64,000 nt of DNA from assembly GCA_964016885.1 (NCBI GenBank), contig OZ024745.1, positions 35,030,001 through 35,094,000 on the forward strand, written 5' to 3'. Below, in pieces: positions 28,535-31,482 of the stretch (positions within the stretch are counted from its first letter, which is position 1; each line of letters opens with the position of its first letter). A program made the position numbers and the translations under genes. Under the pieces are notes generated by a model that saw only the letters and a list, made by a program, of their open reading frames with translations, searched no databases and had not been told where the DNA came from. This DNA comes from Eledone cirrhosa. Lineage: Eukaryota.

Positions 28535-28849
28535 ATATATATACTTATATATAAATATATATATATATATATATATATATATATATATATATATATATAT
28601 ATATATATATATATATATATATATATATATATATATATATATATATATATATATTAGGTATAGGATTATCCAAGATGCAGTGATGGTTAATTACTACACT
28701 GGATATGGTTGACGTACGGTAAGAGGTTACTCTACGAGTTATGGAAGAATTGTTCAAGAAACTAAGTTCCTGATCCTTCAGTATTCCGGAGTGTATATAT
28801 AGAATGAATAATAACAGGTAGACATCATAAAAAGGTAGTTTATTCCGTG

Positions 28850-28961
28850 TGCTTACAAGTGTTTCCACGGTGGTACTGCAGCCTAGTTCCGCTACGTGCA
28901 AATTCACAAGTATTTGCAGAACTCGAATATCCAATGCTGTGACCACTGTTTCCTCAGAGCA
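28850..28961 (-). ncRNA. Type I hammerhead ribozyme (mirror of 31125-31236)
   Basis: Reverse complement copy in the left palindrome arm. Confidence 0.65.
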
Positions 28962-31124
28962 GAATGGTAAATATACAATGTAAAAACCCTTAAGTGGGGT
29001 TGTTGGGGAAGATAGAGTGGAACAGGAAGAGAGAAAAGTAGGGAAGATGGAGAGAGAAGGAAAGATATGCAGGGGTTGGAGAAGTAGGAGAGAGTGGCTT
29101 GTAGATATCTTAATCAAAATGTTATGGTAGGGGTTTTATTAGTTACTTTTGGAGAGATGCGTAGATAGTTGAGGTCGGAATTATTTATTGTCCCAGAGGT
29201 CAAGTTCATAAATGTTGAGAGGGAGGTAGGTCAAAGGTGAGAGAGAGAGAGTGTAATGGATGTAGAGAGAGATATATAGGTAGAGAGGGGACAGATAAAG
29301 TATATGTGGTGAGTGAACTTTTGGTTTTGTAGTAGTAATCTAGGAATTGTACTGAGTTACCATGTATAGTGATAAGCAGTGTATTGTCTTGTAGTGTGGG
29401 GGAGAGGAGAAGGTTGTTAGCTAGAAAGTGGTGTTGTAGTTACGGGTTCGAATGTTAAGTTATTTTATAGTGAGAGAATTTAGCTTTTAGTTTGTGGTTG
29501 CAGTATAATGATCGTTCAATTCTATCGTTAAGTAGTTTGTTTTTGGATTTTAGTATGTAAAATAGCTCAAGGTTACATAACCTGCAGTACTTCAAACCAC
29601 TCCGATATGCATTTGCGCTGGAAAGTATATCCCATTTTAAGGTGAACTGTTGGTTGTGTTCACGGAGTTGCCAGGTCTTGTTGGCGAGCGTGGTCACAAA
29701 ACGGTGATTCTGATGTTTGATTGAGAATCGATGACGGTACCAGCGAGATTTAAACGATGTGGTGGTAGATCCGATATAATACCATTACTGGTCGTCCGAT
29801 TCAACCGTGCATTGGTAAACAATGTTGGACTTTAGGCATTCATTCTGCAATGGACATCTTTCAGGTAGATGGCAGTTACATGCTTTGTTGTGGGTAGCGG
29901 GTATACCTTGGATAGGTTGTGATAGCGGTACAGGTGGGTTGTGCAATATCCGTCTCCCATTTAGTGGTTGGGAGGCAGATATTGCGTTCTGCCCACCTGT
30001 TACTAAAATGTTTTGTTTTGTAGAGTTGTTTAATTGCCTTAAGTTAAGGCAATTAAACAACTCTACAAAACAAAACATTTTAGTAACAGGTGGGCAGAAC
30101 GCAATATCTGCCTCCCAACCACTAAATGGGAGACGGATATTGCACAACCCACCTGTACCGCTATCACAACCTATCCAAGGTATACCCGCTACCCACAACA
30201 AAGCATGTAACTGCCATCTACCTGAAAGATGTCCATTGCAGAATGAATGCCTAAAGTCCAACATTGTTTACCAATGCACGGTTGAATCGGACGACCAGTA
30301 ATGGTATTATATCGGATCTACCACCACATCGTTTAAATCTCGCTGGTACCGTCATCGATTCTCAATCAAACATCAGAATCACCGTTTTGTGACCACGCTC
30401 GCCAACAAGACCTGGCAACTCCGTGAACACAACCAACAGTTCACCTTAAAATGGGATATACTTTCCAGCGCAAATGCATATCGGAGTGGTTTGAAGTACT
30501 GCAGGTTATGTAACCTTGAGCTATTTTACATACTAAAATCCAAAAACAAACTACTTAACGATAGAATTGAACGATCATTATACTGCAACCACAAACTAAA
30601 AGCTAAATTCTCTCACTATAAAATAACTTAACATTCGAACCCGTAACTACAACACCACTTTCTAGCTAACAACCTTCTCCTCTCCCCCACACTACAAGAC
30701 AATACACTGCTTATCACTATACATGGTAACTCAGTACAATTCCTAGATTACTACTACAAAACCAAAAGTTCACTCACCACATATACTTTATCTGTCCCCT
30801 CTCTACCTATATATCTCTCTCTACATCCATTACACTCTCTCTCTCTCACCTTTGACCTACCTCCCTCTCAACATTTATGAACTTGACCTCTGGGACAATA
30901 AATAATTCCGACCTCAACTATCTACGCATCTCTCCAAAAGTAACTAATAAAACCCCTACCATAACATTTTGATTAAGATATCTACAAGCCACTCTCTCCT
31001 ACTTCTCCAACCCCTGCATATCTTTCCTTCTCTCTCCATCTTCCCTACTTTTCTCTCTTCCTGTTCCACTCTATCTTCCCCAACAACCCCACTTAAGGGT
31101 TTTTACATTGTATATTTACCATTC

Positions 31125-31236
31125 TGCTCTGAGGAAACAGTGGTCACAGCATTGGATATTCGAGTTCTGCAAATACTTGTGAATTTGCACGTAGCGGAAC
31201 TAGGCTGCAGTACCACCGTGGAAACACTTGTAAGCA
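31125..31236 (+). ncRNA. Type I hammerhead ribozyme with extended stem II
   Basis: tgct-CTGAGGA-aacagtggt...accaccgtg-GAAAC-actt-GTA-agca. The base of stem II has mismatches. Confidence 0.65.
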
Positions 31237-31482
31237 CACGGAATAAACTACCTTTTTATGATGTCTACCTGTTATTATTCATTCTATATATATATATATA
31301 TATATATATATATATATATATAAATATATATATATATATATATATATATATATGAATGTATATATAGTGTATTTTGCAATACACTGTATGCTTAATAAAA
31401 AGCATTTTGAAGAAATTAAGCTATTGTTTTAGAGTAGTGACAGACTCACTTGCTTTAATTTCAGCAAACAGGGGGAGATAAA

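Follow-up and report, generated by a model that had tools for sequence, protein, structure and literature searches.

A perfect palindrome of a truncated Hydra-clade Penelope-like element in Eledone cirrhosa and its possible origin from two cDNAs of one RNA

The window analyzed here, a 64,000-nucleotide stretch of the Eledone cirrhosa assembly (contig OZ024745.1), holds a retrotransposon copy folded into a perfect inverted repeat, which raises the question of how two long, identical arms came to be joined head to head around a single base. The way in which Penelope-like elements (PLEs) come to form inverted copies and one-sided tails is described as open in PMC8557442 and PMC11167929.

Anatomy of the palindrome and identity of its element

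The palindrome was present in the assembly. On alignment of the assembly sequence, the arms (28794–30042 and 30044–31292) were 1249 nt each and 100% complementary, as the preliminary description had claimed, and were separated by a single G at 30043, which was templated by the left arm. The described 1-nt centre held in terms of this G, but the exact join was ambiguous by 5 nt, as the element naturally has an 11-nt quasi-palindrome there. The outer ends of the palindrome were element 3' ends leading into (TA)n on either side; the left arm extended 142 bases beyond the right, out to 28652, close to the difference of about 140 bp reported earlier. The premature TAA said to lie on both arms was also found on both. 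The features are listed below, with arm positions given on an intact sister copy of 3519 nt (L031) as the reference.

28536–28655 (approximate limits), no strand: (TA)n target microsatellite, left flank, read from the sequence
28652–30048, minus strand: tail-bearing arm, a 5'-truncated Hydra-clade PLE copy (reference 2123–3519)
28652–28793, minus strand: 142-nt tail between two putative reverse transcriptase (RT) start sites, in the tail-bearing arm only
28850–28961, minus strand: mirror hammerhead-like motif, from motif anatomy, predicted cut after 28854
29455–30042, minus strand: mirror of the C-terminal part of the ORF
29785–29787, minus strand: mirror of the premature stop
30038–30048, no strand: centre, the natural 5+1+5 quasi-palindrome of the element, equal to the microhomology of the join
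30044–31292, plus strand: tail-less arm (reference 2129–3377), up to the internal TATATA site, followed by (TA)n
30044–30631, plus strand: C-terminal 195 codons of the ORF (CxCx5C linker, GIY-YIG, CxxC, CxH), broken by a stop
30299–30301, plus strand: premature TAA within the GIY-YIG core, at this locus only (K666* relative to the intact sister)
31125–31236, plus strand: type I hammerhead-like motif, from motif anatomy, predicted cut after 31232
31287–31353, no strand: (TA)n target microsatellite, right flank, read from the sequence

The tail-bearing arm was 99.4% identical to the intact sister and contained the end of the ORF with the GIY-YIG region, the 3' UTR, the pLTR, and the tail. A target-site duplication was unreadable in the (TA)n of the right flank. 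As a copy, the locus is dead and truncated, and it shows the textbook PLE shape at its symmetric limit.

The hammerhead claimed for each strand was recovered as a putative motif on both, judged by motif anatomy: a 4-bp stem I, a C3–G8 core, a stem II region of ~85 nt, and a 2-bp stem III. Motif search placed a hammerhead-like core in each pLTR. The lowest-energy fold of the region differed from a hammerhead, and Rfam returned no hammerhead at gathering or E-value thresholds.

In the element's own 3.0-Gb genome, 2761 candidate relatives were found, of which the 40 scored were 99–100% identical, and the 3'-end motif of the element occurred 2351 times. Several intact sisters retained a single open frame of 784 residues with RT first and the GIY-YIG endonuclease (EN) last, and the frame at the locus corresponded to the last 197 residues of that ORF at 98–99% identity. 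Since a Pfam search with the intact-sister protein P0001 returned 0 families, the domains were read from motifs. P0001 carried RWK and had DKG changed to DKT. The locus frames and P0001 shared a CxCx5C linker, a GIY-YIG core with one Cys only, and CxxC and CxH flanking the conserved E and N, and were without CCHH. RWK, DKT, CxCx5C, CxxC, and CxH make up the Hydra-clade motif set in section 11 of PMC8557442. By eye, the N-terminal and RT stretches matched Hydra-1_Obim, and the spacing from RT motif A to B was the same, i.e., without an insertion-in-fingers domain (IFD). Judged by this motif set and by these matches, the element is a Hydra-clade PLE. The Naiad label given earlier was consequently rejected: Naiad shares the PLE type, the (TA)n target, and inverted insertions, but its EN is N-terminal with CCHH and is accompanied by an IFD and DKA, and canonical hammerheads are absent according to the part of PMC8557442 that treats it, whereas the EN of the present element is C-terminal with DKT and the other Hydra motifs.

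Several neighbouring features were recorded in the window. A 927-residue open frame at 47278–50061 (+) came from a second family of Hydra type; its identity to P0001 was 37%, all the motifs recurred, and its low-complexity inserts were longer. Immediately right of the palindrome, a different short repeat lay in (TA)n at 31340–32120 as tandem and inverted copies; its arms (31285–31537 and 31863–32121) were 94% identical, and it resembled a non-autonomous head-to-head mini-element. To the left, between two TA runs, an ORF fragment at 28106–28530 (−) was found, which we take to be non-LTR retrotransposon-like. Two further near-perfect palindromes occurred at 51118–51371 (254 nt) and 59330–59457 (128 nt), and a weak tRNA-like Rfam match (30.5 bits) at 21017–21074 (−) was probably a SINE head.

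Arrangement of junctions in the family

To place the palindrome among its relatives, junctions were counted in a first set of 101 stretches, namely, its window and 100 loci picked non-randomly by similarity or motif pairs, and in a hold-out of 80 stretches, also chosen by motif or similarity, of which 32 lacked the partner motif. The first set gave 89 head-to-head junctions, with one locus (L119) counted twice and another (L132) repeating the junction of L037 as a local duplicate. A tail arm was joined to a tail-less arm at 71 of the 89; the others were tail/tail (3), tail-less/tail-less (1), or had one arm ending elsewhere (14). Two of the three tail/tail junctions were tandems whose outer ends were again tail and tail-less. 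In the hold-out, 45 of 48 divergent pairs combined a tail and a tail-less arm. At the outer ends, 86/98 tail-less and 69/90 tail ends passed directly into TA repeats, while 15/90 tail ends continued into the 5' UTR. In 36 of 37 pairs, the two partner arms were closer to each other than to the median other copy; in 27 of 37, no other copy was closer than the partner. Thus, one tail arm plus one tail-less arm, with either one the longer, is the family norm, and partner arms share a haplotype.

The relative length of the arms bears on the earlier proposal that one arm was copied from the other by fold-back. Of the 71 pairs, 33 had the longer 5' reach in the tail arm and 28 in the tail-less arm (19 overlapping and 9 non-overlapping, the tail arm of the latter lying wholly inside the tail); in the other 10, the 5' ends fell within 25 nt of each other. 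Accordingly, the simple form of fold-back fails as a family rule, as the 9 non-overlapping pairs are beyond its reach and the 19 overlapping ones would call for additional steps; it was kept as a rival at this locus.

Other arrangements were also observed. Single-arm copies (L044, L083, L085, L090, L091, L098, and L110) nearly all ended at the internal TATATA, which suggests that this site is an obligatory first start site. In an older subfamily (L054, L056, L066–L068, and L141–L210), the tail arms were without the full internal TATATA and the tail-less ends had not moved; thus, TA homology is not strictly needed there. The second arm of L127 was a 16-nt tail stub only, and L034:793–9626 formed an 8.7-kb palindrome of four units, in which two tandems met head to head around a 1-nt centre and two frames were full-length.

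Origin of the palindrome

That the palindrome was made at insertion by a PLE, with one template for both arms, is most likely, as the preliminary description had supposed. As to how, we lean slightly towards one insertion that yielded two head-to-head, 5'-truncated copies: two cDNAs of one RNA, ending at the same base and joined by their self-complementary ends. The endonuclease would nick both strands of the (TA)n run. RT would be primed at the internal TATATA by one target 3' end and, 142 nt downstream, at the end of the tail by the other, and the downstream RT would displace the first cDNA. A break or block near reference 2123 would halt both RTs, the identical cDNA ends would pair by 5+5 bp around a G.G mismatch, and extension and repair would complete the perfect palindrome. 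What was observed for the two-cDNA reading is the anatomy, the clade motifs, the one-tail rule, the same-haplotype arms, and the excess of coterminal arms. Two points were counted against it: displacement of a cDNA strand by a PLE RT is an assumed step, and PMC11167929, albeit for another clade, reports that start sites did not differ between strands and that priming involved no homology.

The coterminal excess was evaluated by permutation. In the first set, arms ending within 25 nt of each other numbered 10/71 against 2.2 expected, and those within 2 nt 4/71 against 0.24. For the hold-out, where the permutation took the 38 simple tail/tail-less pairs among 52 junctions, the corresponding values were 8/38 against 3.9 (p 0.026) and 2/38 against 0.37 (p 0.049). 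Two junctions (L100 and L104) were dropped from the 15-row table of coterminal junctions as not coterminal and as TA repeat. Centres of 0–1 nt occurred at 9 of 141 junctions (6/89 in the first set and 3/52 in the hold-out, the latter with no 1-nt centres). All nine lay, by eye, on element sequence self-complementary over 1–5 bp, for which the chance is ~0.24 each. The samples behind these counts were picked by motif or similarity and are not random, and one hotspot accounts for two of the nine centres (L052 and L167); both points weigh against the two-cDNA reading.

The centre itself was also examined for a hairpin. According to the fold-back explanation, the cDNA, halted at the quasi-palindrome during insertion, folded onto itself and was extended back as far as TATATA, one arm thus being a DNA copy of the other. 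The absence of arm differences and the sharing of private substitutions agree with this explanation, and so does the position of the centre, one of only 2 odd-centred quasi-palindromes of at least 5 bp in the 3519-nt element. Moreover, self-priming has been proposed for palindromic junctions in PMC3846280. However, the hairpin at this centre, 4 bp with a 3-nt loop, was computed to be unstable (+0.5 kcal/mol), compared with −7.1 kcal/mol for two identical ends pairing around the G.G mismatch. Eight of the nine 0–1-nt centres were too short for a hairpin; the present palindrome, at 28794–31292, is the sterically possible one, and it was counted against the two-cDNA reading for that reason. The advance prediction that loops of 2–7 nt would be missing failed: the hold-out contained loops of 3, 3, 4, 5, 7, and 7 nt (range of short loops 3–9 nt; a 22-nt loop was doubtful). 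Such loops fit hairpin priming. Short loops thus grade into one another, and some of them may be products of fold-back. At this locus, we regard fold-back as unlikely, though it is the strongest of the rivals.

Same-site or identical junctions were also noted on different contigs (L061/L189, L171/L207, and L052/L167, reference 3205–3215). These recurrent junctions at the 5' edge of hammerhead stem I represent either a truncation hotspot or copied palindromic units.

The substitutions shared by the arms provide a further measure. Five substitutions were private among 63 young loci and present on both arms, and 0 were arm-specific; one further private change lay in the unpaired tail. Among 121 exact matches of the two alleles at the stop, the stop allele accounted for 2, both at the palindrome locus, and the change adjoining the TA start site was unique as well. 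One tested allele was found at two other places, both in older copies (85–95%), and the substitution at 30680 was tested among fetched loci only. A change at 30875 was private as a pattern but occurred on another haplotype in 13 fetched loci and was dropped. L072, an asymmetric locus whose arms are offset by 138 nt, displayed the same pattern of 5 shared and 0 arm-specific changes, and was counted for the two-cDNA reading. Over 27 young pairs, 72 private changes were arm-specific and 27 were shared. Two other loci with 1-nt centres had 0 shared and 9 arm-specific (L055) or 2 and 7 (L101) changes, while L032 had 0 private changes in 2274 shared bases.

A-to-I editing was rejected as the source of the shared changes, as only 2 of the 27 were A>G and none of these was at the palindrome locus. 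RT error followed by fold-back was rejected on rate: five changes in 1.24 kb are far above the 0 in 2274 bases of L032 and too many for one RT pass. Therefore, fold-back fails to explain the private variants. If both arms came from one RNA, the five substitutions, including the stop, were already in the template, which implies that a dead source was copied in trans, as the two-cDNA reading assumes. Against that reading, neither a source nor a sibling copy with the private alleles was found in this assembly. Either the template RNA came from a decayed copy outside the assembly, or the arms were homogenized once later.

The latter possibility forms a rival of its own, in which an ordinary two-arm insertion aged by ~0.5% and was then perfected by arm-to-arm conversion or by a replication template switch at the centre. 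It would account for private alleles that have no source in the assembly and for the further private change in the unpaired tail, and it does not require a dead source in trans. However, L055 and L101 kept their arm differences, so symmetric loci are not generally homogenized, and the 72 arm-specific against 27 shared changes in the young pairs point the same way. Later perfecting was hence judged improbable, a little more so than fold-back.

Two remaining explanations were given very low weight. The first is an assembly or polishing artefact: the palindrome would have been created, or made perfect, by a fold-back read or by collapse of the arms. Runs of other individuals contained neither the centre junction nor the private alleles at 30178, 30299, and 30680; their copies are a few percent diverged and hence uninformative on the locus. 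Yet the right arm ends at the tail-less end of the family and does not mirror the tail and flank, the same assembly preserves arm differences elsewhere, inverted joins of the element family appeared in contigs of another sample, and polishing would be expected to favour common over private alleles; an artefact is therefore highly improbable. The second, in which two RNA molecules from one source locus each primed one target strand, accommodates the shared haplotype, as only a shared source is required. The near-strict tail/tail-less rule and the coterminal ends are not predicted by it, and it was considered just as remote. Accordingly, two cDNAs of one RNA remained the preferred reading.

Significance and comparison with known systems

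Extended to PLEs in general, the two-cDNA reading would mean integration by overlapping twin priming, with an RT dimer working on one RNA from both tail-bounding sites and on opposite strands, with the trailing RT displacing the leading cDNA, and with the cDNA 3' ends joined directly. This generalization appears plausible, though we give it somewhat less than an even chance. No statement of an overlapping two-cDNA model for PLEs was found in the open literature; closed papers may hold one. If true, the tail, the inverted copy, and the palindromic junctions would share a single mechanism; kilobase-scale perfect palindromes with 0–1-nt centres would mark events in which the two cDNAs stopped at one RNA break; and endonuclease-dead copies would be moved in trans. 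The value of the palindrome thus lies in its record of mechanism, and the junction census supplies concrete predictions for an existing in vitro system. In addition, this genome has repeatedly produced kilobase-size palindromes with near-zero spacers, and L055 and L101 show that these can last until their arms diverge; this is relevant to genome stability, to sources of dsRNA, and to assembly curation.

In L1 twin priming, two target-strand primers act on one RNA, and the resulting cDNAs are joined by microhomology to give an inversion. The present family resembles it in the inversion, in the inverted arms of one template being joined by microhomology (most joins overlap by 0–5 nt), and, as proposed here, in the two primers on one RNA. 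However, L1 arms are not known to overlap, whereas most arms of this element duplicate the same 3' sequence, and thus strand displacement or fold-back is required.

Within PLEs, the Poseidon protein PAc cuts and extends both target strands in vitro and starts RT at two internal RNA sites bounding the tail, and a dimer is predicted (Frangieh et al. 2024, PMC11167929). The three properties correspond to the proposal made here. PAc differs in belonging to the Poseidon clade and in a start site without homology, whereas both sites of the present element are TA-rich; the steps after first-strand synthesis are left open in that report. Hydra-1_Obim (Craig et al. 2021, PMC8557442) shares the order of RT and GIY-YIG, the motifs, the (TA)n target, and, at the level of a putative motif in the present element, the hammerhead. 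The present element is a separate family with a unit of 3178 nt and a hammerhead-like motif with a long stem II; its tail is 142 nt, compared with the usual 30–40 nt, and it has a pLTR, whereas Hydra-1_Obim is listed without one in the same source.

Lastly, the inverted, 5'-truncated copy with a one-sided tail is known from EN+ PLEs (PMC8557442, Fig. 2 legend), and palindromic junctions have been described in those of Adineta vaga (PMC3846280). Head-to-head arms, a tail at one end, and palindromes at the inverted junction are common to those copies and to the present locus, but the present arms are coterminal and measure 1.25 kb. The Adineta vaga junctions were read as self-priming on an antisense template in that study, whereas the junction census presented here favours two cDNAs.
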